64,000 nt of DNA, from positions 64,001 to 128,000 of the forward strand of contig JAVRCJ020000010.1 of assembly GCA_034530875.2 (NCBI GenBank), in the 5' to 3' direction. Made by a program: the position numbers and the translations under genes. The notes under the pieces are model-generated. The model saw only the letters and a program-made list of their open reading frames with translations. It had not been told where the DNA came from and did not search any database. This stretch comes from Nostoc sp. DedSLP01 (lineage in GTDB: Bacteria > Cyanobacteriota > Cyanobacteriia > Cyanobacteriales > Nostocaceae). Shown here piece by piece: positions 23,166 to 60,051 of the stretch (the stretch's first letter is position 1; the number at the start of each line of letters is the position of its first letter).

Positions 23166-26100
23166 CTAAACAGCAGAGAAATCCCACACGCTGATGGTGG
23201 TGGATTGAACATTAACCAATGTAGCTAATAGCTCTTTAGTCTGACTGATACCGATTAAAGTATTGCTAGAACTTTGGGTAATGCTCAGTTGTCCAAAGGT
23301 CAGACCGTCGCGTAATCCGATAAAGTCCTGACCTTTAACAAAGTTGTAAATAATGTCACTACCAGCGCCAGGATAAAGAACGAATTGGTCGATTCCTGCA
23401 CCACCATAGACAGTATCATTACCAAATCCACCATCTAGAACTGAGTTCCCGCTACCCGCAACTAGTAGGTCAGCACCATTGCCACCTAAGAGAATGTCTC
23501 TGTAAGCGATATTCTGCAACTGGGGCTTGCCGCTAGCATCTACAGGAATCTTGGCTACAGAATCTGTAGAAACTTTTTGATCTAAAATGTTTTCGCCGTA
23601 TAGTTGGTCGTTACCATTACCACCAACTAAGTAATCATCGCCCTGACCGCCTACTAGGGTATCATCGCCATCATTGCCATTGAGATAGTCATTGCCAGCA
23701 CCGGCATCAAGATAGTCGTTGCCACTGCCGTAGAAATCATAACCATTATCAACGATATTAAAGCGATTATCGTTATAACCGTAGCCATCACTGAAATCAC
23801 CGTAGAGGAAATCATTGCCCTCTCCACCTAAGAGTAAGTCGTCGTCAAAACCGCCCTCTAAATAGTCATGACCGCTGCCGCCATTGAGTGTATCGTCATG
23901 ATAGCGATAACTTTCATCCAAGTTGCGACGATTTTCGCTTTGACCTGCAAAAAATGGAAAATCGCCAAAGAGGAAATCATTTCCTCCATCGCCTAACAAA
24001 GAATCTCTACCCAGACTACCTTCTAGATAATCATCACCAGCACCAGCAATTAGGGTATCGTTACCAATGTATAAAGTGGAAACGTTGCCCTCGTAGGTAT
24101 CGCCCTCAGAAGTAGTTAATTGGTCATCGCCAATCAGCAAATCGCTACCGTCACCGCCGAGAAGCGAATCGTTACCCAAACCACCATAAAGGTTGTCATT
24201 GCCAATGCCGCCATCTAGGGTATCGTTGTTGCCTGATAAGCTGTCACCATAGACATAATCGTAACCGTAGGCATGAGTATCATCATCGCCATAAAGGAAA
24301 TCATCGCCGTCATTACCTAAGAGTGAGTCAGTGCCGAGTCCACCTACTAACAGGTCATTACCCGAACCACCATCGAGGGAGTCTATACCATTGCGACCGT
24401 AGAGTTGGTCATCGCCATTGCCACCATAAAGGACATCATTACCGATATCGCCATCGAGTAAGTCGTTTCCTAGTTGTCCGTAGAGGCGGTCATCGCTGCC
24501 TTGACCGTAGAGGAAGTCATCACCTTCACCACCATCTAAAAAGTCGCTGCCTGTTTCACCGTAGATGAAATCATTTCCTTGCTGGCCATAAAGTTGGTCG
24601 TTGCCATCACCGCCAGAAATTGAGTCGTTACCTTGACCGCCATCTAAAAAATCCTCTCCAAATTGACCGTAGATTTGGTCGTCGCCCTCTTCGCCGTAGG
24701 CAACATCATTGCCATCATTACCATATAGTTCGTCGTTTTCTTGGCCGCCATTTAATTGGTCATCACCAGCTTCACCAAATAGGATATCTTTACCCGAACC
24801 GCCGAAGAGTCCATCATTACCATCGCCGCCTTCTAGATTGTCGTCTCCATTTTGACCGTAGAGGATGTCATTATTGGCATCACCATAAAGCCAGTCATTA
24901 CCCTCGCCACCTTCTAGATAATCATTGCCGGAACCACCATTCAAACTATCTGCACCTGCTTGACCAAAAAGGCGATCGCTATCTTCGTTACCAAATAAGA
25001 TGTCATTACCGTCGCCACCTTCTAACAAGTCATCGCCAGAGTCGCCATATAATTGGTCGTCTCCTTGGCGACCATAAAGTTGGTCGTCATCATTGCCACC
25101 AAAGAGAGTGTCGGTTCCTTGACCGCCATCTAGCAAATCGTCGCCCTTATCTCCGAATAGTTGGTCGTTGTCATTTTCACCATAGAGTTGGTCGTTGCCA
25201 TCATCTCCAGAAATGATGTCGATGCCATTACCACCATAAAGGCGATCGTTATTTTCGTTGCCATGTAGGATATCATCTCCGGCTTCACCGTAGATTAGAT
25301 CGTTACCGCCCAATCCACAAATTTCGTTATTGCCAGCATCGCCTTGGAGATAGTCGTCGTATTCAGAACCTTCTAGGTTTTCAACGCCTATCAACACATC
25401 TCCCTTAGCGTCTCCTGCCCAGCCTGTTCCTGTTGTCAGGCTGACTCCAACGCCAATTTCTGATGTGAAATAGGAAGCTGTATCAACGCCAATAAATCCT
25501 AATACGGTTGTGCCGAAGAAACCGCCATCGATGGTATCAGCACCTTTACCGCCAACTAAGAAGTCGTCACCATCATCGCCTCTGATAATGTCGTCCCCAT
25601 CTTCACCAAAGAGGATGTCATCACCACCGCCTCCAGATACCGTATCCTTACCTCCACCCGCATAGATGGAGTTTTTGTTGGTGTCACCTGTGAGTTGGTC
25701 GTTAAAGTTAGAACCGATGATATTTTCAATGCTATTGAGAGCATCAATACCACCAAATCCATCAGTGGCGATACCCAATCCGGGAGTGAAGAGAAATCCT
25801 AAAGTGACTGTGACTCCTTTGGGGTCGCGGCGGTAGCTAACTGTATCGATGCCGTCACTACCATCGAGGAAATCGAAGCCAGCATTACCAATTAACAGGT
25901 CATTACCGCTTAAACCTTCGATCGCGTTGGTTTCGGAGTTACCAATTAAAATGTCATCAAAGCTCGAGCCAACGATGTTTTCTAGGTTTTTGAGGGTATC
26001 GACATTTCCATATCCATCGTAGGCAGTGCCTGCATTAATTCCAAATTCTGGCTCTAAGTCGGTTGTTATGGTTCTTTCATCAACACAATCTATATGGATG

Positions 26101-28073
26101 GAACCACCAGCATTGCTGTAGCCGCTTTGTTCGTCGATATTAACTGTTACGCCATTAGGTGAGGTGACATAGAGGACTGTATCAAAATCTGCGCTATTAT
26201 CTCTCTCTTCACCGCCATCTATCGTGTCATTGCCAGCATCACCGGAGATGATATCGGTACCAGCGCCACCAAGTATGAAGTCGTTTCCTGGGTTGTCAAA
26301 CTTACTAATACCAGGGACTGTTGCCAGTAAATCTGCAAACTGAGCTAATTGCTGTGGGGTTAAAAGTTTGGATAAATCCTCTTGGTTCAGGGATATTAGG
26401 TAGTCGCCAATAATGAAGTCATCACCTGCACTACCATTGAGGAAGTCGCTGCCAGCACCTCCTAGAACAAAGTCACCACCATCGCCACCGTCAATGTTGT
26501 CATTACCAGCATCGCCGGAGATGATGTCATTGCCCGCACCACCAGATATGGTGTCATTTCCTTCTACACCTAAATCGAAGGCACTACTTACACCATTGTT
26601 AATAGTATTAAATCCTTGGGGCAAGAAATAATCGCCGAGAATAATATCGTTCTCTGTCCCAGCGTTGATGTTATCGCTGCCAGCACCACCGAGAATGGTA
26701 TCGCTGCCTTCGTTGCCGTTGAGGAAGTCGTTACCGCCATCACCAGAAATCAGGTCGTTACCCAAACCCCCGGAGATGTTATCGTTGCCGACTGCACCTA
26801 AATCAATGCCAAATTGTCCTTGGGATAAAATATAGTCGCCAGCAAGTACGTCGTCACCATCACCACCATTGATGATGTCGCTGTCTGCACCGCCGAGTAT
26901 GATGTCGTTTCCTTGGTCGCCATTGAGGGTGTCGTTAGCACCATCACCAGAAATGATGTCATTACCTACACCACCGGAGATGTTATCGTTTCCTACATCT
27001 CCTAAATTAAACTGGCTGGGGGTGGCTACATAGTCGCCAATGAGGATATCATCATCAGTTCCGCCGTTGATGATATCGCTACCCGCACCGCCGAGAATGA
27101 TGTCACTGCCTTCGTCACCGTTGAGAGTGTCGTTACCACCATCACCAGAAATCAGGTCGTTACCCAAGCCGCCAGAGACTCTATCATTCCCAGGTGCGCC
27201 TAAGTCAACACCAAATTGTCCGGGGGCTACTAAATAGTCGCCGGCAATGACGTCGTTACCAGTGCCGCCATTGATGGTATCATCGTTAGCTCCGCCCAAG
27301 ATTAAATCGTTACCTGCGTCGCCGTTGAGGGAATCATTGCCGCGATCGCCAAAGATGATATCATCACCATTGCCTCCAGAAACCAAGTCGTTGCCTTCGT
27401 TACCAGAACCGATAGGAATTATAAAATCCCCAAATTTGAGTTTGATATTGTCAATACTTCCCGAACCACCAAAACCCAAAAAAGTACCGCCACCACCATA
27501 ACTTCCTGGGATATCAAACTCACCCAAGTTCAAAGGAACATCTTGTGCAACCAGATTTGTCAGGTAGTCCCCAAAGAGGATATCGTTACCCTCACCACCA
27601 TTTATGGTGTCACTACCACCGCCACCGAGAACAACATCTGCTCCCCCATTCCCATTGAGCAAGTCGTTACCGTCTGCACCTGCATCGTTGGGGCCAAGGG
27701 CATCTCCTAAAATCAGATCGAAATCGTTACCGCCGTTAACTGTATCGCTACCACCAAAACCTGCAAAAAAGTTGCTTGGCCCATCAGGAAGAGGTAGAGA
27801 AAAGCTGATTGTATCTGTCCTGTTTTCTTCATCAAGCAGTGTTGGGATTGTATATGTTACTGAAAAGTTAATAGGTAAATCTATAGCTGGTTCATTTTGC
27901 AGAAAATTAGCTCCAGCATTCCCCACAATAATATCGGGAAGGCTACTCAAGCTAACGGGAATAGGTACATCGATATTAGTTCTTCTGGTTTTAGAACCAA
28001 CCAAAAATTCAATCGTAGCTGTAATTCTGGCAGCAATACGCGGTTGTGTTGTTAAAAAACTAAATAGAGACAT
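23166..28073 (-). CDS. Large RTX (hemolysin-type Ca2+-binding) repeat protein, probable type I secretion substrate
   Basis: Dozens of GGxGxDxLx nonapeptides, three DTxxY…LENxxGS units, cyanobacterial RTX C-terminus (GQDFIGLRDGLTFGQLSI); RBS GAGGA. Confidence 0.9.
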   Translation of the reverse strand: MSLFSFLTTQPRIAARITATIEFLVGSKTRRTNIDVPIPVSLSSLPDIIVGNAGANFLQNEPAIDLPINFSVTYTIPTLLDEENRTDTISFSLPLPDGPSNFFAGFGGSDTVNGGNDFDLILGDALGPNDAGADGNDLLNGNGGADVVLGGGGSDTINGGEGNDILFGDYLTNLVAQDVPLNLGEFDIPGSYGGGGTFLGFGGSGSIDNIKLKFGDFIIPIGSGNEGNDLVSGGNGDDIIFGDRGNDSLNGDAGNDLILGGANDDTINGGTGNDVIAGDYLVAPGQFGVDLGAPGNDRVSGGLGNDLISGDGGNDTLNGDEGSDIILGGAGSDIINGGTDDDILIGDYVATPSQFNLGDVGNDNISGGVGNDIISGDGANDTLNGDQGNDIILGGADSDIINGGDGDDVLAGDYILSQGQFGIDLGAVGNDNISGGLGNDLISGDGGNDFLNGNEGSDTILGGAGSDNINAGTENDIILGDYFLPQGFNTINNGVSSAFDLGVEGNDTISGGAGNDIISGDAGNDNIDGGDGGDFVLGGAGSDFLNGSAGDDFIIGDYLISLNQEDLSKLLTPQQLAQFADLLATVPGISKFDNPGNDFILGGAGTDIISGDAGNDTIDGGEERDNSADFDTVLYVTSPNGVTVNIDEQSGYSNAGGSIHIDCVDERTITTDLEPEFGINAGTAYDGYGNVDTLKNLENIVGSSFDDILIGNSETNAIEGLSGNDLLIGNAGFDFLDGSDGIDTVSYRRDPKGVTVTLGFLFTPGLGIATDGFGGIDALNSIENIIGSNFNDQLTGDTNKNSIYAGGGKDTVSGGGGDDILFGEDGDDIIRGDDGDDFLVGGKGADTIDGGFFGTTVLGFIGVDTASYFTSEIGVGVSLTTGTGWAGDAKGDVLIGVENLEGSEYDDYLQGDAGNNEICGLGGNDLIYGEAGDDILHGNENNDRLYGGNGIDIISGDDGNDQLYGENDNDQLFGDKGDDLLDGGQGTDTLFGGNDDDQLYGRQGDDQLYGDSGDDLLEGGDGNDILFGNEDSDRLFGQAGADSLNGGSGNDYLEGGEGNDWLYGDANNDILYGQNGDDNLEGGDGNDGLFGGSGKDILFGEAGDDQLNGGQENDELYGNDGNDVAYGEEGDDQIYGQFGEDFLDGGQGNDSISGGDGNDQLYGQQGNDFIYGETGSDFLDGGEGDDFLYGQGSDDRLYGQLGNDLLDGDIGNDVLYGGNGDDQLYGRNGIDSLDGGSGNDLLVGGLGTDSLLGNDGDDFLYGDDDTHAYGYDYVYGDSLSGNNDTLDGGIGNDNLYGGLGNDSLLGGDGSDLLIGDDQLTTSEGDTYEGNVSTLYIGNDTLIAGAGDDYLEGSLGRDSLLGDGGNDFLFGDFPFFAGQSENRRNLDESYRYHDDTLNGGSGHDYLEGGFDDDLLLGGEGNDFLYGDFSDGYGYNDNRFNIVDNGYDFYGSGNDYLDAGAGNDYLNGNDGDDTLVGGQGDDYLVGGNGNDQLYGENILDQKVSTDSVAKIPVDASGKPQLQNIAYRDILLGGNGADLLVAGSGNSVLDGGFGNDTVYGGAGIDQFVLYPGAGSDIIYNFVKGQDFIGLRDGLTFGQLSITQSSSNTLIGISQTKELLATLVNVQSTTISVWDFSAV

Positions 28074-29514: not shown

Positions 29515-30258
29515 CTAAAGTAACGTCTGAGAAATAACTTGTAATATTTCTTGCTGATTGCTTTTGAGAAAGAAATGGTTACCAGAAAATGTATGGAGTT
29601 GAAATTTGCTAGAAGTTTGTTCGCGCCAACCGTCAAGGGAAGCAGTCAGAACCACCTCGTCTTGTAAACCACCAAAAACAGAAATAGGGCAATCAAGTGG
29701 AGCTTCTTCTATATATGAATAAGTCTCAGCTATTGCTAAATCTGCTCGCAAGATACTTAAAAACAATTTCATTAATCGAGCGTTTTGCAAGATAACACTT
29801 GGAGTACCGTTAAAACGACATACTTGTTGAAAAAACTCAGCTTCCGGTAGTTGATGAATTGGTGGGTGTAAGTCAGGAGAATTAGGAGCTTGACGGGCAG
29901 AAATAAAAAGATGAAAGGGTTGGCGATGTTTTAATCGACGCAACTGGCGTACTAACTCAAAGCAAATCAAAGCTCCTAAACTGTGGCCAAAAAGAGCAAA
30001 GGGGCGGTCAAATTCGGGTAAAAGGGCAGGTATCATCTCCTGAAGTAGAGGTACTAACTGGGTGAACAAAAGCTCTTTTATTCTGTTTTCTCGTCCAGGG
30101 AGTTGTACTGCACATACTTCTATTTGTGGAAGTAATTGGTCAGCCCAAGGTTTAAAAAAAGAAGCACTCGCACCAGCAAAAGGAAAGCAAAACAGCCGTA
30201 AATTGGCTTGAGGGTTGGGTTTAGGATATACGAGCCAAGGATTTATCATCGCAACCAA
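29515..30258 (-). CDS. Type II thioesterase
   Basis: RLFCFPFAG, VQLPGRENR, GHSLG nucleophile, LRADL, GNHFF. Confidence 0.92.
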   Translation of the reverse strand: MVAMINPWLVYPKPNPQANLRLFCFPFAGASASFFKPWADQLLPQIEVCAVQLPGRENRIKELLFTQLVPLLQEMIPALLPEFDRPFALFGHSLGALICFELVRQLRRLKHRQPFHLFISARQAPNSPDLHPPIHQLPEAEFFQQVCRFNGTPSVILQNARLMKLFLSILRADLAIAETYSYIEEAPLDCPISVFGGLQDEVVLTASLDGWREQTSSKFQLHTFSGNHFFLKSNQQEILQVISQTLL

Positions 30259-30410: not shown

Positions 30411-33400
30411 CTAAACGATACGAAAATCGCTGGCATTAAGAGTAGGATGATTGACAAGGTTAGCAAATACACCGCCACTGCCAAGTCCAGAGCCAGAGCC
30501 GTTTTGATTGTAATATAAATCGCCACGAACTGAATCGTACACAATAAAGGCTTGACTGCTTCTAGCTGCGTTACCATTAGTCACTACAGCAAAATCTTTC
30601 AAGTTGTTAAAGCCGTCTCCTACTGAACTTTTCAAAGCGGTGAAAGTATCTTTACTCAGCACAATCTTGTCACCGAGTTCAAAGTCAGTAATTTTATCTA
30701 CACCAAATTCGCTACTGGCAAATTTTTTGTCTGTGTCGAAGATAAAACGATCTCTACCAGAACCACCAGTCAGGATATCGTTTCCGGCACCACCAACTAG
30801 TTGGTCGTTCCCTGCGCCCCCGATGAGTGTATCGTTACCGGCATCACCATAAAGGGAATCATTACCTCCTTGGCCATTTATAGTGTCATTTCCTGCTTTA
30901 CCGAAAATTTCGTCGTTACCATTAGCTGAATTTGCGATCGCACTTTTCGCACTTAATGATGTCAGATTTTGTGTCGTCGGGTCAGTACCAATCAGGCTGT
31001 CTTTTTGATTGCTACCAAGAATTTTATTGGTGATTGGTGAGGTGGACGGATTAAAAGATAGTAGAGAACCAGTGTTCGCATCAAGTTTGGCTATCCACGT
31101 ATCAACGGTACCAGCATTGACACCTCCAAGAGAACCCTCGGTAAATCCTGTAACGAAGAGATTACCTAAATTATCAACGGTGATACCTGTAGCATAATCT
31201 AATTCAACCGTGCCAAATTGTTTAATCCATTTTTGATTGCCTGCGGTATCATAGCTAGCTACCCAAGCATCAAAAGACCCGGCGTTAGTTCCGCCTAAAC
31301 TACCTTGGGTATATCCAGTCATAAAAATATTGTCTTTGGCATCAATTTTTACGCCACCAAAGAACAAACCATCAGCACCACTAGTACCAAATTGGCGAAT
31401 CCATTCTTGAGTACCATCTGGTTTAGATTTAGCTATCCAGACATCTTCTGCACCGGCATTTGTCCCTCCTAAGTCGCCTCTAGTCCATCCAACTGTGTAG
31501 AGATTACCCTGGCTGTCATGGTCGATATCCCAGGAAAAATCAAAATTTGCACTGCCAAATTGATCGACATTTTGGAGTTGTCCGTTAGTAGCGTTCAATT
31601 TGAGGATAATGGGATCGTAGAAATTAAAAGCTCCTTGACCAGAGTAATCACCATAAGTCCATCCTGTAACGTACACAGAACCATCTTTGCCGAGGGTAAT
31701 ACCGTATGCTTCATCAAATAAAGCCACAGAGTTAATAGGAGATGCAACTTCTGTGTACCATTTCTGATTACCATTGGTATCGTATTGTGCTACCCAGATA
31801 TCATCTTGAGCAGGAAATACTCTGTAAATGTTACTAGTTGGTCTGGGATCTTCCCTAACCGTCAGTCCAGATACGTAAATGTTGCCATTATTATCAACAG
31901 CAATATCGGTAGCAGCATTTAAATAATCAGCTCCTAACTGGCGAATCCATAACTGGTTACCATTGCTGTCATACTTAGCGAACCAAGAATCTTGAGTGCC
32001 GGAATTCAACGAACCCGCTAAATTACCTTGAGTACCTCCAACTACATAAAGATTACCGAATTTATCTGTAGTAATCTCAAAGACTAAATCGTACTTAGAA
32101 GTACCAAACTGTTTAACCCACAGCTGCTGCCCATCGTTGTTGTATTTGGTAATCCAATTATCAAAAGACCCAATATTAGCACCTTGTAAAGCACCATTTG
32201 TCAATCCCGCCGTATAAACATTACCCCAGTTATCTACAGTAATAGCTGCACTGAGATCGATACCAGCAGTTCCAAATTGTTTAATTAGTGGTTGGGCTGG
32301 TTGGAGAGATGGCGTAGTACCTACGTACTTGAAGTTAGAACTGGTGAGATTGAGATTGTAGTTAGCAAATACAATGCCTACTAAATCATCTTCAAAAACA
32401 GATGTACTTCCGGTTTTCTTTTGAAAGATTGCAGTTCCCAAAAATGGAACATTTACCAGTTCGTAATCTGCCGCAGAACCACGTAACTGAATAGTATCCT
32501 GATTAGGATTAAAATCGAAAATAAAGCCAAAGTCATTGTAACCAGATTGATTGTAGTATGACTGTATCCAATCCCCAAGCACAAATCTATCGCTACCTCC
32601 AGAAGGAGGATTGCCTCCCAAGATATTGAAAAAATCTTGGCTTAAATATAGTTTAATTACTTCGGAATCACCAAAGAAAATATCTATATGAGTTGGTACT
32701 TGTGCGGACTGATTCAAACTGTGGTCAATAGGATAAAAAGTATCATCACCTATCCGACCAAAAATTAGTTGAAAGTCAGAAAATCCACCAAATACTAAGT
32801 CGCTAGCAGGTGTTAGTGTTGTAAATAGGGCATCGTATTCGGTCGGAGGTAATTCACCATCTGTGTTGGAGAATAAAGTCTCGAATAAAATGTTATAGAA
32901 TGCACCTATAGCGTTATAAGCTTGTTCAATTGGGTCAATATTAGCCATAGAATTAACTGTCACAGTTAGAGGTTGTTCCAAGGAAAGTCCACCATTATCA
33001 GTAGTGCGAACGCGCAGATTGTAGGTAGATTTAGTTTGAAAGTTGGGAGAATTTTTAATTTTTAAAGTGTTGCCATCAATAATGAAAGCATCATTATCAG
33101 CATCATTAGTTCCTGATACTAATTTGTAAGTAAAAGTGTTTCCAGTATCAGGGTCGGTAGTAATAAATTTGCCAACGTTCGTGCCTGCTGGCACATTCTC
33201 ATTCACACTTGTGGCAGTTAATGTTAAACCTGTGGGAGCTTCGTTAACATCTTTGATTGCGATCGTTAGAGGTTGTTCAAAAGAAAGTCCACCATTATCA
33301 GTAGTGCGAACGCGCAGATTGTAGATAGATTTGGTTTCAAAGTTGGGAGAATTTTTGATTTTTAAAGTGTTGCCATCAATAATGAAAGCATCATTATCAG

Positions 33401-36413: not shown

Positions 36414-37400
36414 TTAACCTAAGTTTTTTTTACGAAACATAACGGCCATATTAGTCTTAAAACTCAGCCAATAGCCAAAAATCATGTAGAAGATGAATTT
36501 CAATGAAGTCAGTGCTTTTACAGGTTGGCTGGGTTCATAAATGACATCTAATGAGCCGTCGAATAAACGCACATACTGATTCCACATCCGACTATTCATA
36601 CCAAATAGAAGGTCATGAAATGGGCGTTCAAAGAAAGATACAACTTCCCAATTTTGCTGTTTACCTAGCAATTCCAAAGTTTGTTGAGTATACATGTGAA
36701 GGTGATAAGGAACATGCACCTCGTTATAGTACTCAGCTAAATTAGGTTGGGATAGGTCAATATTGTCTGCGTTTGGTGTGGCAACGAGAATATAACCACC
36801 AGGCGCAAGCAGATTGTCTAACTCAGATAATAGGGTATGAGGATCTTCAACGTGTTCGATAATATCCTGGAGTAGGATGTAATCAAATTTCCCAGGCTCA
36901 AGAATTTTGGCATTGTTGAATTCTGGGTGGGGTGAGTAAGGATCGTACCCACGAACATTTGCAAAGCCAAGTTCTTGCAAATATTTGACAAATAGACCGT
37001 TACCACCGCAACCATAATCAAGAAAGGTGTGATTTTTGTCAAAGCCATGCTTTTTCAGGCGTTTGAGGATATTTTTATAGCAGGCGCGTGCTGAATCATG
37101 AGCAACAGCTTGGGCAATGGGATATTTTGCGTAGTAGCGATCGAGGTCTACAATATCTAGACAATGAATTGTTCGGCAATTTGGACACCGCCAAACTTTG
37201 AATTTCTCATCCCTAAAGGCTCTAACGTTACAGGGAAAAGTAACAAATAGAGATTCGTCACGAGGATCGATACGATAGTTACAAATCAAACACTCAAGGC
37301 GTTGTTTGCTTGCTGTCCCGTTTTGGTTTTGCTGCAAAAGCAAATCATCTGAAAGGCTAAGATTGGACGGGTATTTGTTTGTCATTATCTTCGATCTCAC
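36414..37400 (-). CDS. Class I SAM-dependent methyltransferase with N-terminal Zn ribbon
   Basis: CLIC…CPNC, LDYGCG, IIEHVEDP, LAPGG, TPN, PYH. Confidence 0.88.
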   Translation of the reverse strand: MRSKIMTNKYPSNLSLSDDLLLQQNQNGTASKQRLECLICNYRIDPRDESLFVTFPCNVRAFRDEKFKVWRCPNCRTIHCLDIVDLDRYYAKYPIAQAVAHDSARACYKNILKRLKKHGFDKNHTFLDYGCGGNGLFVKYLQELGFANVRGYDPYSPHPEFNNAKILEPGKFDYILLQDIIEHVEDPHTLLSELDNLLAPGGYILVATPNADNIDLSQPNLAEYYNEVHVPYHLHMYTQQTLELLGKQQNWEVVSFFERPFHDLLFGMNSRMWNQYVRLFDGSLDVIYEPSQPVKALTSLKFIFYMIFGYWLSFKTNMAVMFRKKNLG

Positions 37401-38172: not shown

Positions 38173-38181
38173 CTTACTCGA

Positions 38182-44329: not shown

Positions 44330-44420
44330 GGTTGATGTTTGGGTGTAGTGGCAATTTTGGATTTTAGATTTGGGATTTTGGATTGAAAATGCGGATTTAT
44401 CAGCGATTCCAGAATGGCAG

Positions 44421-51053: not shown

Positions 51054-51070
51054 GCTAAATATAGTGCCTT

Positions 51071-54000
51071 TTATCCAATTAAGCTTTCTAGTTGTGCCAA
51101 TCTTTCAGCAATTGAGGCTTCTAGTTCGTCGTCAGATAGGTGTGTAATTTCTAATACATCCGTAGTTGGCTCGGTTTCTACTTCCTGTTGCTCGTCTTGC
51201 CAATGTAGAACTTCCTTACCCAAATATGTAGCTAAGTCTTGAATGTTGGGCGCTTCAAACAGCAGAGTTCCAGGCAAAGAACAGTTGAGAGCAGTTTCCA
51301 GACGGGTTTTTAAATCAACAGCCATCAAAGAATCTATACCCATCTCAAAGAAACCCCGATGTGTTTCTGGTAGTTCGGACATTCCTAACACTTGAGAGAT
51401 TTGGGTTTGCAAGTATGCAATTAAGATAATTTGACGTTCGTTTACCGTTGCTGTTGCTAATTTTTGTAATATTTCTGACTTCTTTTCTACAGCTTTTCCT
51501 GTATTTTCCTGTACCTGCCTACCTAACTTCTCTAACAGCAGGCGTTGCCCTCTAGCTTCATAAATCCCTTTAAACACAGTCCAATCAATATTAGCGATGG
51601 TGACTTGGGATGCATCTGCTTTCAAAGCCACTCCCAAAGCGTTTAATGCTAGCTGTGGTTGCAAAGCCTGGACTCCCATCCTGGCTAAAAACTGCTCGGC
51701 TTCTCCTACAGCCATGCCTACTTCTGCCCAAGGCCCCCAATTGACGCTCAATGCAGGTAATCCTTTGCTGCGTCGGTAATTTGCTAAGGTATCGAGGAAA
51801 TGGTTGGCGGCTGCGTAATGGGCTTGTCCTTTAGATCCCCACACAGAGGCGATGGAAGAAAAACTAACAAACAAGTCTAATTCCAGATTTTCGGTGAGTT
51901 GGTGCAGAATCCATCCGCCCAGGACTTTCGGACGCAGAATAGATTCCCAAGTAGTCAAATCCATCCCGGTGATGGTATCATAACCGACTACACCTGCTGC
52001 ATGAATTACACCTTTCAGGGGCGGCATTGATTCTGCTACCGTTTCTAGCACGCGCAACATATCTGTTTTATTAGATACATCTGCTTGTGCTATCAAAATC
52101 TTAATTCCAGCCGCCTGCATCTTGCTAATAGTCGCCTGTGCCTCTGATGATGCACCTCTGCGTCCCAGTAACACTAAGGATTTGACGCCTTGGTTAACAA
52201 GCCACTCAGCTAATTTGAGTCCTAAAGCACCCAGCCCACCAGTAATTAAATAAGTACCGTCGTAGTTGAAATTTGTTTGTGATGATGCTGTTGGCTGCAT
52301 CGGTACTAACCGCGCCACATAACGCTGTCCTGAACGAAAAGCTAAATGGTCTTCTTTTTGAGCGTCGTTAATTTCTGCCAACAGCGTTAAAGCTTCATTA
52401 GCTGTAGGTTGTGGGTCTAAATCTATCATTCCTCCCCATAACTCTGGGTGTTCCAGTGCTACTACCTTACCTACCCCCCACACAGGTGATTGCTGTACGG
52501 CTGGTAGTGAGGAATTGACAGACATTGCTCCCCGCGTCACTAACCATAAGGTCGGAGTTACAGGTTGTTGATATTCTGCGATCGCCCCAATCAGATGTAA
52601 TACACTGATACACTCCCCAGACAAAGAGAAATCTGTCGTCTGAGTTGTTTCTAAATTCCACAGATGTATTACTCCCCGCCAAGGCAATTCACCAGATGGC
52701 AAGGCTTCTTGCAATAACCTCGAAAAATCTTCCCGGTGGGCTGGATTTACCGACCAAGTGGTTGTTTCTTGCTGCTGATAGACATCACCAGGATAGACGA
52801 GAATACAGCGATGACCTTGATTTTCGAGTAATTGGGCGATCGCTTGTCCTAAACCACCGCGATCGCCTAATATTAACCAACTACCAAGTTGTTGAGGCAC
52901 TTGTGCCTCCGACTGGCGGCGGGATTGGGGTTGCCATGCAATCTGATAAAACCAATCGGGAATTGTTGGGGAAGCGATTTCTAAATGGTGCTGCTTCACC
53001 AACACCTCCAGCAGTTTTGGTAAATATATCTGCTCGTCTGCCGACAGTTGACTAGCTAACTGCTGAGTTAATTGTTCTACATTTCCCTGATGTAGCAGTT
53101 TCACTATTGAGCTTTGAACTAAGTCATCAGTTTTTTGCTCACTTTTACTCTCTACCCAAAAACGCTGACGTTGAAAAGGATAAGTTGGCAAATGCAAACG
53201 CATACGCTCATAAACAGCGTCAAAGCCTTGCCAATCAACAGCCACACCATGACAATGTAACTGCGCCAACGACGATAACATCACCTGCCAATCATCTTGT
53301 CCTGGTCTGAGTGAAGGTAACCACAATCCCTCGGCTTTTGTAACGCACTCACGACCCATACCCAACAATATTGGTTTAGGGCCAATTTCAACATACGCCG
53401 CTACCTTCTGTTGTTCTAATGTCGCTATACTCGCAGCAAATTCTACTGGACTGAGAATGTGACGACACCAATATTCAGGTGTGGCGATTTCTTGTGTGGC
53501 TAATTCTCCAGTCAGATTAGAAATTAGCTTGAGCTTAGGAGCAGCGAATTTAATAGAGTTGGCAACTTGCATAAAGTCTGCCAACATCGGCTGCATCAAG
53601 GGAGAATGGAAAGCATGAGATACTTGCAGTGGTTTGGTTTTTATCCCCATACTTGCCAGTTGGCTGCAAATTTCACTAATGGCTGATTTCTCCCCAGAGA
53701 TTACCAAGCTTCTAGCGCCGTTAACTGCGGCGATGGCTATTTTCTCTGAGTATGCTGCTAGCAGTGGCTGTAGTTGTTCAACTGTTGCCATGACTGCTAC
53801 CATTGACCCATTTTCTGGTAGCGCTTGCATCAATCTGCCACGGGCAGCTATTAGTTTTAACCCGTCTTCGAGGCTAAATACTCCCGCGACGCAGGCGGCG
53901 ACGTATTCACCGACGCTATGACCCAGGACTATATCTGGTTTGATTCCCCAGGATTGCCATAGTTGATAGAGGGCATATTCAAGGGCAAATAGGGCTGCTT

Positions 54001-55792
54001 GGGTGTAGTTTGTATTATCAATGGGACTTGTGATGCCTGGTTGGGGATATAAAACTTCTAATAATGGTTTGTCGAGATATGGTTTGAGGATTTGGTCGCA
54101 TTGGTCGATGGTTTGGCGGAATTTGGCTTGGGTTTGGTATAATTTTTGCCCCATGCCTGCGTACTGCGACCCTTGCCCTGTAAATAAAAAGGCGATTTTA
54201 CGGCGCTTGTTGCCTTGTGCCTGACCTGTTACTACTCCAGTTGCTTGAGTTCCGGCAGCGAACAGTTGCAACTGCTGCTGTAATTCAGAGTTAGATTTTG
54301 CTAGAACTGCTAAACGGTGTTCAAATTGCGATCGCTTTGTATTAGCCGTATAGCAAATATCTGCCAAAGCTAATTCTGGATTTTCATCTAAAAAGTTTGT
54401 ATAACGTTGTGCTAATTCAGATAAAGCTGCAGGAGTTTTTGCTGAGAGAGTCAGTAGATGCAAAGGACGTTCCAGGGTATCTACTTCCTGGCTGCGATTT
54501 CCTTGTTGCTGCGGTCTACCTTCTTCTAAAATCACATGGGCATTAGTACCGCCAAAACCAAAGGAACTGATACCTGCAAAGCGAGGTGTATTGACCTGCC
54601 AAGGTTGCAGTTGGCAAGGAATAGCAAAGGGAGTGCCAGCAAAGGAAATTAACGGATTTAGCTCCTGAAGGTTTAAATGAGGCGGAATTTGTTGATGTTT
54701 CAGTGCCAAAACTACTTTCAGCAACCCAGCCATTCCGGCCGCGGCTTCCAAATGACCGATATTGGTTTTCACCGAACCAATCCAGCATGGTTGCTCGGAA
54801 CTACGTCCTTGTATGAGAACGGTTTTCAGAGCTTTGATTTCGATGGGATCTCCCAGTGATGTCCCGGTGCCATGAGCCTCAATATAGCTAATTTGGGAAG
54901 GTTCAACACCAGCATTTTGTAGTGCTTGGCGAATCACAGCTTGTTGAGCAGAGCCGTTGGGTGCCGTCATCCCATTGCTCAGACCATCTTGGTTAACTGC
55001 TGAACCTCTGATAATTGCCTGAATATTATCTCCATCCCTAATTGCATCCGCCAGACGTTTGAGTACTATCACCCCACATCCTTCACCACGGACATAACCA
55101 TTGGCTTTAGCGTCAAAGGTTTTACAACGTCCATCCCCTGCCATCATGTGAGCGTTAGAGTACGTGATGGTCTGTTGCGGAGACAACATCAAGCTGACGG
55201 CTCCGACTACAAATAAATCAGTTTCTTGATTTCGCAAACTCTGACAGGCTTGGTGCAGCGCCACTAAGGAGGACGAGCAAGCCGTTTCAATTGTAAAACT
55301 CGGCCCCTTGAGATTTAATAGGTACGATAGGCGAGTAGCAGCAATACTAATGGTATTTCCAGTACCATGATATGCACTGATGCGGTCTAAGTCTTTGGAT
55401 GACAAGATGCCGTAGTCATAATTACCGATGCCAACGACAACCCCCGTTTGGCTGCCAGATATTTCAGCAGGTACAATCCCAGCATTTTCTAAGGCTTCCC
55501 AAGCAACTTCTAAAACTAGGCGTTGCTGAGGATCCATTGCTTTCGCTTCCCGAGGAGAAATGCCAAACAAGTCCGGATCGAACTTATCTACTTGTTCAAT
55601 AAATCCACCGAAACGAGTGTTCATTTTTCCTGGCGTCCCAGGTTGGGGATGGTAAAATTTTTCAATGTCCCATCGATCCACCGGCACTTCTGAAATAGCA
55701 TCAATGCCATTGCGTAAAAGATGCCAAAAAGCTTCTGGATTGTTAGCACCAGGAAAACGACAGCCAATACCAATAATTGCTACGGGTTCCAC
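51071..55792 (-). CDS. Type I PKS module KS-AT-KR-ACP
   Basis: ETACSSS/EAHGTGT/GHLE; AT GHSVG and HAFH; KR TGGLGALG, WGSKGQAHYAAAN (A-type W, no LDD); ACP GIDSL; GTG start with GAGG RBS. Confidence 0.95.
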   Translation of the reverse strand: MEPVAIIGIGCRFPGANNPEAFWHLLRNGIDAISEVPVDRWDIEKFYHPQPGTPGKMNTRFGGFIEQVDKFDPDLFGISPREAKAMDPQQRLVLEVAWEALENAGIVPAEISGSQTGVVVGIGNYDYGILSSKDLDRISAYHGTGNTISIAATRLSYLLNLKGPSFTIETACSSSLVALHQACQSLRNQETDLFVVGAVSLMLSPQQTITYSNAHMMAGDGRCKTFDAKANGYVRGEGCGVIVLKRLADAIRDGDNIQAIIRGSAVNQDGLSNGMTAPNGSAQQAVIRQALQNAGVEPSQISYIEAHGTGTSLGDPIEIKALKTVLIQGRSSEQPCWIGSVKTNIGHLEAAAGMAGLLKVVLALKHQQIPPHLNLQELNPLISFAGTPFAIPCQLQPWQVNTPRFAGISSFGFGGTNAHVILEEGRPQQQGNRSQEVDTLERPLHLLTLSAKTPAALSELAQRYTNFLDENPELALADICYTANTKRSQFEHRLAVLAKSNSELQQQLQLFAAGTQATGVVTGQAQGNKRRKIAFLFTGQGSQYAGMGQKLYQTQAKFRQTIDQCDQILKPYLDKPLLEVLYPQPGITSPIDNTNYTQAALFALEYALYQLWQSWGIKPDIVLGHSVGEYVAACVAGVFSLEDGLKLIAARGRLMQALPENGSMVAVMATVEQLQPLLAAYSEKIAIAAVNGARSLVISGEKSAISEICSQLASMGIKTKPLQVSHAFHSPLMQPMLADFMQVANSIKFAAPKLKLISNLTGELATQEIATPEYWCRHILSPVEFAASIATLEQQKVAAYVEIGPKPILLGMGRECVTKAEGLWLPSLRPGQDDWQVMLSSLAQLHCHGVAVDWQGFDAVYERMRLHLPTYPFQRQRFWVESKSEQKTDDLVQSSIVKLLHQGNVEQLTQQLASQLSADEQIYLPKLLEVLVKQHHLEIASPTIPDWFYQIAWQPQSRRQSEAQVPQQLGSWLILGDRGGLGQAIAQLLENQGHRCILVYPGDVYQQQETTTWSVNPAHREDFSRLLQEALPSGELPWRGVIHLWNLETTQTTDFSLSGECISVLHLIGAIAEYQQPVTPTLWLVTRGAMSVNSSLPAVQQSPVWGVGKVVALEHPELWGGMIDLDPQPTANEALTLLAEINDAQKEDHLAFRSGQRYVARLVPMQPTASSQTNFNYDGTYLITGGLGALGLKLAEWLVNQGVKSLVLLGRRGASSEAQATISKMQAAGIKILIAQADVSNKTDMLRVLETVAESMPPLKGVIHAAGVVGYDTITGMDLTTWESILRPKVLGGWILHQLTENLELDLFVSFSSIASVWGSKGQAHYAAANHFLDTLANYRRSKGLPALSVNWGPWAEVGMAVGEAEQFLARMGVQALQPQLALNALGVALKADASQVTIANIDWTVFKGIYEARGQRLLLEKLGRQVQENTGKAVEKKSEILQKLATATVNERQIILIAYLQTQISQVLGMSELPETHRGFFEMGIDSLMAVDLKTRLETALNCSLPGTLLFEAPNIQDLATYLGKEVLHWQDEQQEVETEPTTDVLEITHLSDDELEASIAERLAQLESLIG
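53156..54198 (-). repeat. AT-domain duplication, copy B
   Basis: Near-identical to 48288-49330. Confidence 0.9.
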
Positions 55793-55922
55793 AACAAAGA
55801 CCTCAAATCCTTAGTATCGCTACTGATACATCAAATGATGTTGATACTCGCCATCGTTTTTACCTAGATATTGCTGATTTATTGATGTTGAGAAAAATCA
55901 TCACTTTTCAGCCACACCTAGG

Positions 55923-57296
55923 CTAAACAACAGCACCAGCAAACTTAACAAATGCTGATTTATTTCGTTGAATAGCTTGTTCGATTGAGCCACCAGCAGC
56001 CATTAACCGCATTTCACGGTTTACAGGCCATAGATAGTCAAGACGACCAAAGAATTTCTGCATATCGAATAACAGATCTTGGTGATACTTGAGATTCAGA
56101 TGAAATCCTTCATGCTCTTGACACAAGCATTTTTCTAGCCAGTGGATAGCATCACGACTAGACATCCCAAATAAGGGAGATGTTAACAACCGATAATATG
56201 CAGTCATAAAAGACGCATCATCTCGGAATGTAACAGGTAACACAGCTGACAATCCGTTCAACAAACCGCCTTGCAGGCGATAGATAATCATGTTCGACAA
56301 CAGTTTTTCATAAGCTGTCGGTTTGGGGAAGTCTTTATAGACCTCCTGAGAAATCACATTGGACATTGTTGTATGAAAGGCTTCATCCAACAAGTGATAG
56401 TAAGAAACTTGTAAAGGAGCAGGAATGAATTGGTTTTTTCTCTCTAGTTCTCTAAACTGGCGGAAGAAGCGATGCTCGTAAGCCTTGAGGGACATATTAG
56501 CAATCATACGAGCCGAGTAATACTGAGCTGCCATGAAAGGCGAACTACCCCAGTTCAAAGTCAAGAATTTAAAGGCAGATATAGAAGCTGTTACGCCTGC
56601 TAACCCATCAGTTGTTGTTGGAATACGATCGACACCACGTTCTTCTAAAAACTGGGAATAATAATCTGCATTCTGGCGATGCATCAGTTTAGTAATCGCT
56701 CTAAATGTAGATTCTTGGAGGGATGACCAATATTCCTTGTTTTGCGACAGCTTGAACTTACCCAACAAGCTAGTGTTGGATTTGGCTAACTTTTTATGCA
56801 GAGTATTACCTAAGGACTGCTTACCTAACAAAGCTACCTTAGTTTTATACCCAATTCTTTGAAAGGTAGTAATGTGAGATTTTTCTTGATTGGTTTCTAA
56901 ATCTAGCTCTTGACACAGAGTTTGGTAGCCACCAAGCTTCGTAAATACACCTGATGTTACTTGGTTGTAAAGCATGGTGTTGGATTCAGAAGCAGCTGTG
57001 TGCTGATACTGTCCAACCCAATATAAATGATTCAAAGCCAGCTTTTGAGAAGTTGAAGCCTGTTCGTAAAGAGGTGTGCCATATAAAGTTGAAAGTTCAG
57101 GTTCGCCCCAGAAATAATTGCTGTTACTGCTATAGTCAAAATTTTTCCCTAGAGCTTCTATTTTTTCAGTGTAATCCGAGTCAGTGTTATTGTTGTATGT
57201 TTTTTCAATTATTTGAAAATGCTTTTTTTGCTTTTTCTTTGATGTATTTAACGATCGTTGATTGTTAGATACCGTGTTGGATGCTATGGATACCAT
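55923..57296 (-). CDS. CylC-type dimetal-carboxylate halogenase (AurF-like ferritin fold)
   Basis: LYGTPLYEQAS…LALNHLYW, ESNTMLYNQ, LDLETNQEKSH, YYHLLDEAFHTT, LDYLWPVNREM; sits next to FAAL and ACP. Confidence 0.88.
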   Translation of the reverse strand: MVSIASNTVSNNQRSLNTSKKKQKKHFQIIEKTYNNNTDSDYTEKIEALGKNFDYSSNSNYFWGEPELSTLYGTPLYEQASTSQKLALNHLYWVGQYQHTAASESNTMLYNQVTSGVFTKLGGYQTLCQELDLETNQEKSHITTFQRIGYKTKVALLGKQSLGNTLHKKLAKSNTSLLGKFKLSQNKEYWSSLQESTFRAITKLMHRQNADYYSQFLEERGVDRIPTTTDGLAGVTASISAFKFLTLNWGSSPFMAAQYYSARMIANMSLKAYEHRFFRQFRELERKNQFIPAPLQVSYYHLLDEAFHTTMSNVISQEVYKDFPKPTAYEKLLSNMIIYRLQGGLLNGLSAVLPVTFRDDASFMTAYYRLLTSPLFGMSSRDAIHWLEKCLCQEHEGFHLNLKYHQDLLFDMQKFFGRLDYLWPVNREMRLMAAGGSIEQAIQRNKSAFVKFAGAVV

Positions 57297-57349
57297 TTAT
57301 ACCCTCAATGACGAATGCAAAACAAAGAAAATCAGCTTTTACCCAATGA

Positions 57350-57391
57350 CATCAAAAGTTGGCTTTTTGGCAAACAAGCCAGTTTTTGATG
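57350..57391. terminator. Intergenic hairpin between ACP and halogenase
   Basis: CATCAAAAGTTGGCTT…AAGCCAGTTTTTGATG. Confidence 0.5.
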
Positions 57392-57436
57392 ACTGACAAA
57401 CTAGAAAAACGCTGCTACAACCTTGAGTTATAGCGA

Positions 57437-57754
57437 TTAATACAATTGAGAACTTAAATGCTCGACAAGACTTTCAATAGTAGGGTAGTCGTAGAGCAGT
57501 GTAGGATCTAAGTCCAATCCCAGCCAATCTGCTAAATCACCGGTCAAACCAACTGCTACAGAAGAATCTAATCCATAAGTACTAAAGGGTACAGTAGTAT
57601 CAATGTCTTCTGTTCCTACTTCTAGCAAATTAGCTATATATGAAAGAATCCAATTTTGAACTTCTTCAGCAGATGGAAGTTGCTTTAATTCCTGTTCTTT
57701 GGTATCTTTCTCAATTTGAGAAACTTGCATTAAATCAAGATTTTGAGTTGTCAT
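57437..57754 (-). CDS. Stand-alone acyl carrier protein (CylB-like)
   Basis: PFSTYGLDSS phosphopantetheine site, LLYDYPTIESL. Confidence 0.92.
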   Translation of the reverse strand: MTTQNLDLMQVSQIEKDTKEQELKQLPSAEEVQNWILSYIANLLEVGTEDIDTTVPFSTYGLDSSVAVGLTGDLADWLGLDLDPTLLYDYPTIESLVEHLSSQLY

Positions 57755-58203
57755 TGTTGCTATTTAACTCGATTATTTAGATATTTTTTAAGTTCGCCTG
57801 GGAAAGAATTACTAAAATAAAATTTCCTCGAAGGATCGGAAAAATAGCTGATATATTTATCAGGCTATTAAATTGACACCACTGATATATTTTCTGTAAT
57901 TCTTCTGATAATACTATTACAGAAATGATTTTTTTGAAATACGTATCCGAATATTTTACCAATCTATTAAAATTCACTTTATATTAAATGTATTAAAACA
58001 GTATATTTCTGGATGCGTGTCTATTTTACCCATTAGAAACACAGCAGATTGCAATTTGGTAAATTACAGGATAAGCAGTAAAAAAACCAGCTTTTAAAAT
58101 GCTTTTTAATTGACTATAAACTACAGTATTTGGCTTTATAATATCCTCACAACCCCCCTTTTACAGGGGGTTTAGTTTTCTACTTTTTCAGGAGGATTAA
58201 ATT

Positions 58204-60051
58204 CTATCCTTGTTTTTCAACTTGCAATTTCTGCAAAATAGTTTCAATCTCTGCTTGTAAATTCATATACTTTTTGGTGCTTTCTGGACTTTCACTCCAG
58301 TCTTGTACAATATCTAAACTGCCTGATAAAAACGCAGCCCGACAAGCATAACGGCGAATTTTACCGCTAGAAGTTTTAGGAATACTTCCAGTTTTCACCA
58401 GTACCACAGCAAAGACATCTAGACCATGTTCTGTGATTACTGCTTGTCTAACCTTATTAACGACTTCTTGAACGTTTAATTTCTTCAAGTAAGTTCTTTC
58501 GACTTCAGCAACAACAACCAATCTTTCAGAGCCTTTGAATTCTACTGCGAAGGCAGCTAAACAACCTATCCTCAAAGCAGGATGGCTCTTCTCTACAGTG
58601 AGTTCAATGTCTTGAGGATAATGGTTTTGCCCGCGAATAATGATGATATCTTTAATCCGACCTGTGACAAACAGTTCGTTATTTTGTAAAAATCCTAAAT
58701 CTCCTGTACGTAGAAACGGGCCTGACGCTTCGCGATCGCTAATTTCCGTATCAGCAAGATAAGCATAAAAGCTTTTTTCTGTCAGTTCAGCTTGGTTCCA
58801 GTAGCCTTGAGCCACACTTGGGCCTGATATCCAGATTTCGCCAACTTCTTTCTCAGAACAAACGCTTAAAGATTCGGGATTGACAATGACAATCTTCATA
58901 TCTTCACAGCTTTGTCCGCACCCGATGAGGGTTCTGGCATCTATCTGTTCGTTTGTAACTTTGACTACTCGATTTTGCTCTAGTGCAGCAGGATCGACTT
59001 TACAAACGATTGGTAATTGCGTTTTCGCTCCTCCAGAAACAATCAGAGTTGTTTCCGCCATCCCGTAGCATGGGTAGAATGCTTTTTGACGAAAACCGCA
59101 GGCTGCAAAAGTTTTGGCGAATTCCTCTAATGTGTGAGCGCGAATCGGTTCGGCTCCTGTAAAAGCAACATCCCAACTACTTAAGTCTAGGCTTTCTAAG
59201 TGTTCGGGCGTGACCTTACGTAAGCATAGCTCGTATGCAAAGTTGGGACCGCCACTAGTAGTAGCTTGGTAGCGAGAAATTGCTTGTAACCAACGCATGG
59301 GTTTTTGCAAAAAGTCTACCGGTGACATCAATACCACGGGAAACCCAACGTAAAGGGGTTGTAAAATACCGCCTATCAATCCCATGTCATGATAAGGAGG
59401 TAACCAAATCAAACCTTTGCTGTTGGATGAATGGCCGAAAGATTGGGCAATGAGGTGAGAATTATGTAAAAGGTTGTTATGGCTGACCATTACACCTTTG
59501 GGATTGCCAGTAGAACCAGAGGTGTACTGTAAAAAAGCTAAGGAATTCTCTTCAAGTTGTACTTGCTGCCACGATCGCGTGAGTTCGCTATCCAATGCAT
59601 CGGTAGTTAACCATTGCAATTTAGCTAGTTCTAAACCTTGTTCGGCAAAAAGCTCGCGGTTATTCACTAATGTTGTTGTAGTGAGTACTATTTGAGCTTC
59701 AGCATCGGCTGTAATTGCTTGCAGTCTATTAAGATTTTGATTTTTTCTCGGTGGATATGCAGGAACGGCTACAACTCCAGCATATAAACATCCAAAGAAG
59801 GCAGCAATAAAATCTAATCCGGGCTGATAAAGCAGCAGGGCGCGTTGTCCAACAAGATTAAGAGCTTGCAAAGCAGAAGCGATCGCTCTAGACTTCAGAT
59901 GCAGTTGTTCGTAAGTCAAACTATCAGCTTCTTGTTCTCCATTTTTGAGAAATGTATAAGCTTTTTGGTCTGGCTGATGCTTGGCTCGGTAAAGAAGTAT
60001 ATCGACTAACGATGAGGCGCTATCTATTGAATGGCTTAAATTTATGGTCAT
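58204..60051 (-). CDS. Fatty acyl-AMP ligase (FAAL)
   Basis: AFLQYTSGSTGNPKG, WLPPYHDMGLIG, PCYGMAETTL, FLRTGDLG, IPKTSSGKI; FAAL insertion (VDPAALEQNRVV). Confidence 0.93.
   Translation of the reverse strand: MTINLSHSIDSASSLVDILLYRAKHQPDQKAYTFLKNGEQEADSLTYEQLHLKSRAIASALQALNLVGQRALLLYQPGLDFIAAFFGCLYAGVVAVPAYPPRKNQNLNRLQAITADAEAQIVLTTTTLVNNRELFAEQGLELAKLQWLTTDALDSELTRSWQQVQLEENSLAFLQYTSGSTGNPKGVMVSHNNLLHNSHLIAQSFGHSSNSKGLIWLPPYHDMGLIGGILQPLYVGFPVVLMSPVDFLQKPMRWLQAISRYQATTSGGPNFAYELCLRKVTPEHLESLDLSSWDVAFTGAEPIRAHTLEEFAKTFAACGFRQKAFYPCYGMAETTLIVSGGAKTQLPIVCKVDPAALEQNRVVKVTNEQIDARTLIGCGQSCEDMKIVIVNPESLSVCSEKEVGEIWISGPSVAQGYWNQAELTEKSFYAYLADTEISDREASGPFLRTGDLGFLQNNELFVTGRIKDIIIIRGQNHYPQDIELTVEKSHPALRIGCLAAFAVEFKGSERLVVVAEVERTYLKKLNVQEVVNKVRQAVITEHGLDVFAVVLVKTGSIPKTSSGKIRRYACRAAFLSGSLDIVQDWSESPESTKKYMNLQAEIETILQKLQVEKQG

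Follow-up and report, generated by a model that had tools for sequence, protein, structure and literature searches.

The window analysed here is a stretch of 64,000 nucleotides from Nostoc sp. DedSLP01 (G000:C10:64001-128000; source genome G000, 8.57 Mb, 99.8% complete). It holds a cluster of 14 intact open frames, all on the minus strand between positions 23166 and 60051 in the window list of open reading frames (ORFs). This cluster almost certainly belongs to the nostochloroside (ngl) family, judging from its genes. A UbiA-fold membrane protein and a HAD phosphatase stand in the place of the glycosyltransferase cassette. We propose, with a probability of about 0.6, that these two proteins put ribose from phosphoribosyl pyrophosphate (PRPP) on a lipid alcohol, which would give an O-methyl-ribosyl chloro-lipid that is oligomerised by a double CylK protein; the ribosyl head group itself is given the same odds. 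A wider reading is that UbiA and HAD form a new lipid glycosylation machine, which would move ribose-5-phosphate from PRPP onto long-chain alcohols, make a ribosyl chlorolipid here and replace HglT in Richelia. We hold this wider reading a little less firmly, at somewhat better than even odds.

Nostochloroside-type core and exchanged sugar cassette

The nostochloroside cluster ngl (pks3) of Nostoc punctiforme ATCC 29133 has a total length of 36,029 bp. According to the accessible sections of PMC10849952, its order is FAAL, acyl carrier protein (ACP), halogenase, a module of ketosynthase (KS), acyltransferase (AT), ketoreductase (KR) and ACP, a fully reducing module, KS*-ACP with His replaced by Gln at position 344, and NglG, which joins a docking domain to an aldolase. 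The same sections describe reductases, an epimerase, a glycosyltransferase, the CylK homologue NglO (R84, E428, Y460) and a thioesterase. The product is a 6-O-methylgulosyl 12-chloro C21 triol, from which NglO makes ether oligomers. No locus named as ngl turned up in our scan of genome contigs, and the reference used here is the cluster of genome G020, chosen by its fit to the published values and not as the deposited ngl record. It has the ngl gene order, 36,029 bp from thioesterase to DevC, Q344 and R84/E428/Y460, that is, all published values that can be checked.

Read from 60051 to 23166, the Pfam domain order of the window cluster is FAAL, ACP, AurF-like halogenase, KS-AT-KR-ACP, KS-AT-DH-ER-KR-ACP (DH, dehydratase; ER, enoylreductase) and KS-ACP without AT. 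These are followed by TubC_N with 560 aa without a family, a short-chain dehydrogenase/reductase (SDR), UbiA, HAD and a methyltransferase, and at the 3' end by a protein with SBBP propeller, cadherin and RTX repeats, a thioesterase and an RTX-only protein. The first eight genes, up to the SDR, stand in the same order as in ngl. Identity to the G020 cluster is 86% for the FAAL (NglA counterpart, 615 aa, 58204..60051, Pfam AMP-binding), 81% for the stand-alone ACP (NglB, 57437..57754, PP-binding), 89% for the CylC-type halogenase (NglC, 457 aa, 55923..57296), 85% for polyketide synthase (PKS) module 1 (NglD, 51071..55792), 88% for module 2 (NglE, 44421..51053), 88% for KS*-ACP (NglF, 42023..44329), 90% for the NglG counterpart (40111..41973) and 82% for the SDR (NglH, 39092..39961). 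The type II thioesterase (NglR, 29515..30258, assigned by Pfam) is 88% identical, and lies at the 3' end, unlike in the reference. At the DNA level, window positions 40090-57994 align with G020 over about 18 kb at 86%, and protein identities to G036 and G022 are similar to those to G020.

The motifs of the core enzymes agree with this assignment. The halogenase matches AurF at E 2.6e-06, which is under the Pfam cut-off. KS, AT and KR motifs are complete in modules 1 and 2, with DH and ER motifs additionally in module 2; both AT domains carry GHSVG/HAFH, and the LxD motif is present in KR2 and not in KR1. The third KS has Cys/Gln344/His, numbered as in published NglF, and no AT. It is followed by an ACP, and neither a thioesterase nor a reductase domain is terminal, as in the ngl family. 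In the AlphaFold model of the 620-aa NglG counterpart (pLDDT 84), residues 327-606 match class II aldolases (Z 14.2, rmsd 2.9, 165 aligned), as the earlier note on this DNA had guessed from the sequence, and H519, H521 and H580 are invariant across 41 sequences. The protein is presumed to release the chain and extend it by one carbon. NglG relatives are common and were found in 45 of 127 genomes of the genus.

The earlier note had described an orphan cluster of 14 co-oriented genes. The genes and domains were recovered as described; the orphan status does not survive, because the core is gene-for-gene that of ngl. A gene-for-gene match to a known cluster had been named there as the decisive comparison, and such a match to the G020 reference exists for the core and fails for the sugar cassette only. 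The collinear chemistry that it proposed (chloro-acyl chain, KR-only and fully reducing extension, head group, CylK cross-linking) is largely right, and is the published nostochloroside logic (PMC10849952, accessible sections). The upper boundary at 60051 is too low, as the cluster runs on past this position and past the window end. A 608-aa gene, a GNAT gene and DevC, all beyond that boundary, are common to the window locus and the reference.

Other known clusters, of which cyl, col and cly/noc share the FAAL/ACP/CylC start, do not fit. The brt cluster has dialkylresorcinol-forming enzymes and a glycosyltransferase, and col and cly have nonribosomal peptide synthetase C/A modules. Pfam found no type III PKS, nonribosomal peptide synthetase or glycosyltransferase family among the 30 window ORFs scanned, in agreement with the earlier note. 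With none of their features in the window ORFs, brt, col and cly/noc were rejected. The cylindrocyclophane cluster (cyl) was ruled out for lack of a type III PKS, as cyl clusters carry the resorcinol-forming type III PKS CylI (PMC10849952, same sections).

After the SDR, the reference continues with a FAD oxidase, a second SDR, an epimerase, a GMC oxidoreductase, a GT4 glycosyltransferase, a methyltransferase and CylK, whereas the window has UbiA (38182..39012), HAD (37357..38172), a SAM O-methyltransferase (36414..37400) and the double CylK. Five gulose and glycosyltransferase genes are thus replaced by UbiA and HAD. Furthermore, the window CylK is doubled and has cadherin repeats, the thioesterase/RTX genes and the DevC/GNAT/608-aa block lie on swapped sides, and no DevB gene is present at the locus. 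Since ngl proper makes a gulose glycolipid with a cluster glycosyltransferase and a sugar epimerase, and neither is found in the window, the cluster is a variant of ngl and not ngl itself.

The exchange is not restricted to this genome. Among 47 NglG loci from a genome scan, with gene labels assigned by BLAST to annotated proteins, 36 have a GT4- or MGDG-type glycosyltransferase. UbiA, HAD and methyltransferase occupy the glycosyltransferase slot in three (L028, L030, L036), UbiA and a glycosyltransferase occur together in none, and eight have neither label, several of them because the contig ends. The methyltransferase, assigned by Pfam, is 70% identical to that of the UbiA-type cluster of Microcoleus sp. 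FACHB-1515 (L028) and 60% to that of the reference, while the core genes show the opposite, with 61-68% to FACHB-1515 and 82-90% to the reference. These opposite closest relatives suggest that UbiA, HAD and methyltransferase probably entered as one block. A short multi-copy intergenic repeat (window 40018-40092; contig depth spike, many loose ends) lies between the NglG and SDR genes, just within the boundary where likeness to the reference cluster stops.

Raw data cover the exchanged region. A single contig in each of the runs X1 and X2, which are possibly the source data, covers 33686-42500, from CylK unit 1 to the aldolase gene; these contigs break within the cadherin repeats. Run X4, from a second study, yielded pieces of about 95-96% identity over RTX, CylK, UbiA/HAD and SDR. 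A promoter and terminator scan was uninformative, with fewer sites than in shuffles (32 vs 45.8 and 9 vs 10.7). Neither this variant nor a ribosyltransferase of the UbiA type for such lipids appeared in the literature listings surveyed, which covered sources other than subscription journals.

The UbiA protein, its HAD partner and the proposed pathway

The UbiA protein of the window was assigned by a profile, a residue map and its gene slot. The profile, built from 47 of 63 homologues, scored 152 bits against decaprenyl-phosphate phosphoribosyltransferase (8J8J, E 2.7e-43), compared to 69 for DGGGP synthase, 65 for AfUbiA and 33 for ApUbiA. Residues R22, Y70, N73, D77, K87, R90 and Y138 of Rv3806c are kept, and the changes Q135 to N, K143 to R and K191 to R are conservative. 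The window residues R25, N73, D77, K87, R90, Y139 and R144 are equivalent to the Mg/pyrophosphate ligands R22, N73, D77, K87, R90, Y138 and K143, so that the Mg and pyrophosphate ligands of the DPPRS/PPPRS phosphoribosyltransferases are present. UbiA fold, these ligands and an RxxE motif are shared with the Rv3806c DPPR synthase (8J8J, PMC10994848) and with Citrobacter ORF15 (PMC11127046), at about 18% identity. ORF15 also shares the HAD partner: in the accessible part of PMC11127046, this UbiA-fold synthase with a HAD domain (PPPRS-PRP) installs ribofuranose.

Several points speak against a ribosyltransferase role. The acceptor-phosphate ligands K28, Y157 and K191 and the second Asp of the NDxxD motif are changed to N31, M158, R193 and A74 in 23 of 23 close homologues. 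In Rv3806c, K28 and Y157 bind the acceptor phosphate and also the PRPP 5-phosphate (PMC10994848, in part), and their loss would also remove ligands of the latter. Ala74 of the window protein matches the D74-equivalent Asp-to-Ala mutant of ORF15, which is nearly inactive, and both characterised phosphoribosyltransferases of the UbiA fold use a polyprenyl phosphate acceptor and not an alcohol (PMC10994848 and PMC11127046, both in part). Moreover, Foldseek ranks 8J8J first for the UbiA model and gives no separation, with a TM of 0.73 for Rv3806c and 0.73 for a prenyltransferase. Because the acceptor-phosphate ligands and the second Asp are changed, the window protein is not a DPPRS/PPPRS member by its residue features, yet that family is the one it is most like. 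The replacement of K28 and Y157 fits an acceptor that is an alcohol.

The HAD protein, assigned by Pfam, motifs and homologues, carries DxD, S, K and GDxxxD, which we take to be phosphatase motifs. The listed TTG probably lies upstream of its true start, since homologues have 217-251 aa. From the comparisons above, the UbiA protein is likely a PRPP-dependent 5-phosphoribosyltransferase acting on an alcohol, the HAD protein likely removes the ribose 5-phosphate, and the methyltransferase likely methylates the primary hydroxyl of the sugar. PDB searches with the methyltransferase and the GNAT protein gave nothing specific. Three-component pentofuranose systems combine the synthase with a flippase and a GT-C transferase; Pfam recognised neither of these two in the window cluster (window ORFs only).

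Genes, domains, catalytic residues, homology and distribution were observed, and every reaction of the following pathway is predicted from them. As expected from 86-89% identity, the FAAL would load a fatty acid, which is C16 in ngl, and chlorination by the halogenase would follow (at C7 in ngl). Judging from the domains, module 1 would keep the hydroxyl and module 2 would reduce fully, so that the acyl chain would be C20 with a 5-hydroxyl. From KS*-ACP the chain may then pass to the NglG counterpart; this protein and the SDR together would form a C21 1,2-diol, a hypothesis taken from PMC10849952. UbiA would move ribose-5-phosphate to the primary alcohol, HAD would free O5 and the methyltransferase would methylate it; the O5 methyl on ribose would correspond to the 6-O-methyl of gulose in ngl. 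If the ngl chain is assumed, the predicted monomer is C27H53ClO7, with [M+H]+ 525.3553. On the same assumption, the calculated m/z is 511.3396 for the pentoside lacking the methyl group, 808.6428 ([M+NH4]+) for the stearoyl ester and 1013.7266 for a dimer less HCl, and a hexoside would be at 555.3658. Finally, the CylK units would displace chloride by the chain hydroxyl of another monomer to form ether oligomers, as NglO does. The ribosyl head group is supported by the UbiA profile, which favours phosphoribosyltransferase, and by the exclusive occupation of the glycosyltransferase slot by UbiA, HAD and methyltransferase.

The last step is suggested by catalytic residues. As the double CylK of the earlier note implied, the 1766-aa protein (30411..35711) has two CylK units (PDB 7RON, E 2e-154), with three cadherin repeats between the units and a C-terminal RTX part; the units are 58% identical to each other. 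Unit 1 has R53/E401/Y432 and unit 2 has R986/E1334/Y1365. Thus, the Arg and Tyr that bind halide are conserved in both units, together with a Glu base as in NglO; from CylK, BrtB and NglO, the window protein differs in having two units in one chain. The double CylK was considered as the novelty of the variant and rejected, as an orthologue in Calothrix sp. PCC 7103 (L026) is 70% identical unit for unit and belongs to a cluster with a glycosyltransferase.

Stand-alone pairs, heterocyst glycolipids and rival explanations

Outside NglG clusters, UbiA was found in six of 388 genomes of the family, each time as a UbiA-HAD pair without PKS neighbours. Of 12 metagenome UbiA matches, loci L073-L078 hold the same stand-alone pair, several being identical to genome copies, and the remaining six are distant and in different contexts. 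In each of the 12 close stand-alone loci examined (six metagenome, six genome, some identical), the gene after UbiA is HAD. Named members of the protein clusters are Richelia intracellularis, Richelia sp. and Calothrix rhizosoleniae; the Richelia intracellularis UbiA (WP_008233618.1) is 64% identical to the window UbiA, and the HAD next to it in G698 is 62% identical. The lineages of Richelia intracellularis and C. rhizosoleniae are without hglT, and those with lipid profiles have pentose or ribose glycolipids. Searches of 400 genomes of the phylum gave zero UbiA matches, and 400 genomes of the order gave one distant match (37%, other context). A relative of this distance in G045 (37%, L137:8523-11898) is divergent from a 756-aa protein whose C-terminal half looks polyprenyl-synthase-like by eye. 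In several stand-alone loci (L100:120-2948 in G698, L073-L076, G488, G489, G491), the pair is followed by a gene of 362-371 aa, which in G698 is Rubisco accumulation factor 1.

HglT takes its sugar from a nucleotide sugar, and is unrelated to the pair in fold and in donor, PRPP being the donor predicted for the pair. The role expected of the stand-alone pair is the same as that of HglT, the glucosyltransferase of heterocyst glycolipids (PMC11804610, in part), namely to place a sugar onto a long-chain primary alcohol. In the accessible portions of PMC11804610 and its preprint, hglT is absent from three Richelia species. In two of these, all heterocyst glycolipids are pentose ones, and none of four glycosyltransferases tried as candidates worked in hglT-deficient Anabaena. 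Neither the main text of PMC11804610 or of the preprint nor the spreadsheet supplement contains the term UbiA. The sugar of Richelia heterocyst glycolipids has been named ribose in PMC8969518 (seen in part), which cites Schouten 2013.

Our survey of hglT used the copy of the source genome (L102:7524-8771), identified by its hgl-island position and not by comparison with All5341. With this query, hglT was found in 367 of 388 family genomes and not in 21. It was not found in five of the six UbiA carriers (G488, G489, G491, G552, G698), with best matches of 29-31%, and all five have hgdA. The hgl island runs into unrelated genes at the all5343 and hglT positions in G552, G491 and G698, and stops at contig edges in G489 and G488. 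NglG gave no match in G488, G489, G491 and G698, which therefore have no ngl-type lipid for the pair to act on; among the carriers, NglG is present in G552 and G579. In L077, the pair directly adjoins hglT at the end of the hgl island. We consider it slightly more probable than the opposite that the stand-alone pair ribosylates heterocyst-glycolipid aglycones in Richelia.

Other findings speak against this role. G579 and L077 hold both hglT and the pair, and G523, G496 and G695 have hgdA with neither hglT nor the pair. The hgl island of G523 holds another glycosyltransferase, a 656-aa GT1-family protein (L125:8464-10434), possibly a second kind of replacement. A close UbiA was found in none of nine other hglT-less genomes tested (seven further ones lie outside the test), and in G699 an 855-bp contig begins within HAD, with no match for UbiA. 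All 19 stand-alone rows fall into a single clade (96/99) inside a 32-row clade (94/91) that also contains PKS-linked copies, so the stand-alone copies probably have one origin. Since they form one clade, the association of pair and hglT is not statistically independent, and the Fisher p of 1.7e-6 overstates it and is not valid support. In addition, low amounts of pentose glycolipids, possibly pyranose, occur in most cultures (PMC11804610 and preprint, in part), so pentose alone is not diagnostic.

Other explanations of the pair were weighed against the ribosyl lipid. The pair may make a polyprenyl-phosphate-ribose donor, from which an unlinked GT-C enzyme would move ribose to a lipid or glycan. 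This is the sole activity shown for the closest characterised relatives, Rv3806c and ORF15, and the HAD partner fits it. It is nevertheless unlikely in our view, because K28 and Y157, the ligands of an acceptor phosphate, are replaced in 23/23 close homologues, and because no flippase or GT-C was found in the window cluster or recognised beside stand-alone pairs, a statement that covers the window ORFs and the assigned neighbours of the pairs. The same residue losses, together with that of D74, would fit a prenyl or alkyl transferase. Such an enzyme would form an ether or put a chain onto a phosphorylated acceptor, with HAD trimming the phosphate and no ribose involved; the superfamily fold allows it, and the ether-forming DGGGP synthase is the second PDB match. 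We judge it to be just as unlikely, as the profile favours phosphoribosyltransferase by 83 bits and the RRxxE motif matches KRxxE of the phosphoribosyltransferase, at a place taken in prenyltransferases by a second Asp-rich motif. It would also leave unexplained the exclusive use of the glycosyltransferase slot and the occurrence in hglT-less lineages with ribose lipids.

In the window cluster, UbiA, HAD and methyltransferase may instead be passengers, with the aglycone staying free or being hexosylated by a glycosyltransferase encoded elsewhere. The source genome does have GT4 homologues, at G000:C3:53432 (58% identical to the ngl-type enzyme) and C23:30456 (55%), which might act in trans and weigh against a ribosyl product; one of them lies in a second NglG cluster on C3. 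Against passengers stands the recurrence of UbiA, HAD and methyltransferase after NglG and SDR, in the same order, in three distant genomes. The genes are also intact and closely spaced, and a second strain keeps them. This explanation is thus the least probable of the alternatives, and transfer of ribose to the lipid alcohol by UbiA and HAD is preferred.

Other genes, neighbouring loci and significance

The gene at 23166..28073 encodes an RTX-repeat protein without a catalytic family (Pfam) that co-travels with the thioesterase. It was rejected as an enzyme or pore-forming toxin, because it shows repeat families only and all NCBIfam matches are below the cut-off. Beyond 60051, the 608-aa protein (61097..62923, minus strand) has 85% identical counterparts beside the ngl-type clusters of G020, G036 and G022. 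It has an N-terminal signal-like segment and matches no family of Pfam or NCBIfam; its own Atlas cluster is unnamed, and DUF1214, the nearest one with a name (0.89), is a lead only.

The 385-aa GNAT acyltransferase begins in the window at 63590-64000 on the plus strand and continues to window position 64747 (G000:C10:128747; L070:3590-4747), where the DevC gene follows. At E<=1e-60, it was found in only four of 127 genomes of the genus. These are exactly the four with an NglG of about 90% identity, and the GNAT gene always lies beside the cluster. In the accessible sections of PMC10849952, ngl is without an O-acyltransferase for nostochlorosides C-G, and the GNAT protein is a candidate for this enzyme.

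The second NglG-type cluster of the same genome (G000:C3:38631-63998; L071, L072; NglG 67%) has FAAL, CylC, one KS-AT-KR-ACP module, KS*-partial AT-ACP, NglG, SDR, GT4, a GMC-like protein and an MGDG-type glycosyltransferase. UDP-galactopyranose mutase, an MFS-like protein and a single CylK are also present, and no stand-alone ACP was seen. In NglG clusters L024-L068, module number and sugar genes vary widely, including UDP-galactopyranose mutase and several MGDG-type glycosyltransferases, which implies a large unexplored family of chlorinated glycolipids. Lower in the window, positions 10528-15187 hold a small operon with two Double-GTPase genes (DO-GTPase1/2) and three ORFs without a family, at a lower GC content of 36-38%. 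Past the window, G000:C10:148000-182300 holds another PKS/NRPS-like cluster with two P450-like genes, labelled from N-terminal sequence and BLAST only.

The new part of the cluster is the exchange of UbiA and HAD for the sugar cassette, the role of which the earlier note had left unstated; the core chemistry is already known from nostochlorosides. A new compound of the nostochloroside type, whose mass can be calculated, is predicted from the cluster, but this alone is a variant. The larger value lies in the exchanged gene pair, a candidate for the pentose-glycolipid transferase of Richelia. Its chemistry would give ribose, and it is present in named Richelia and C. rhizosoleniae records. A glycosyltransferase-based search, such as that described in the accessible portions of PMC11804610, would have missed the pair, as it is not annotated as a glycosyltransferase. 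If this assignment is true, the pair would represent a new acceptor class for UbiA-fold enzymes, and could serve as a genetic marker of the organisms that make a lipid used to trace marine nitrogen fixation by diatom-diazotroph symbioses.

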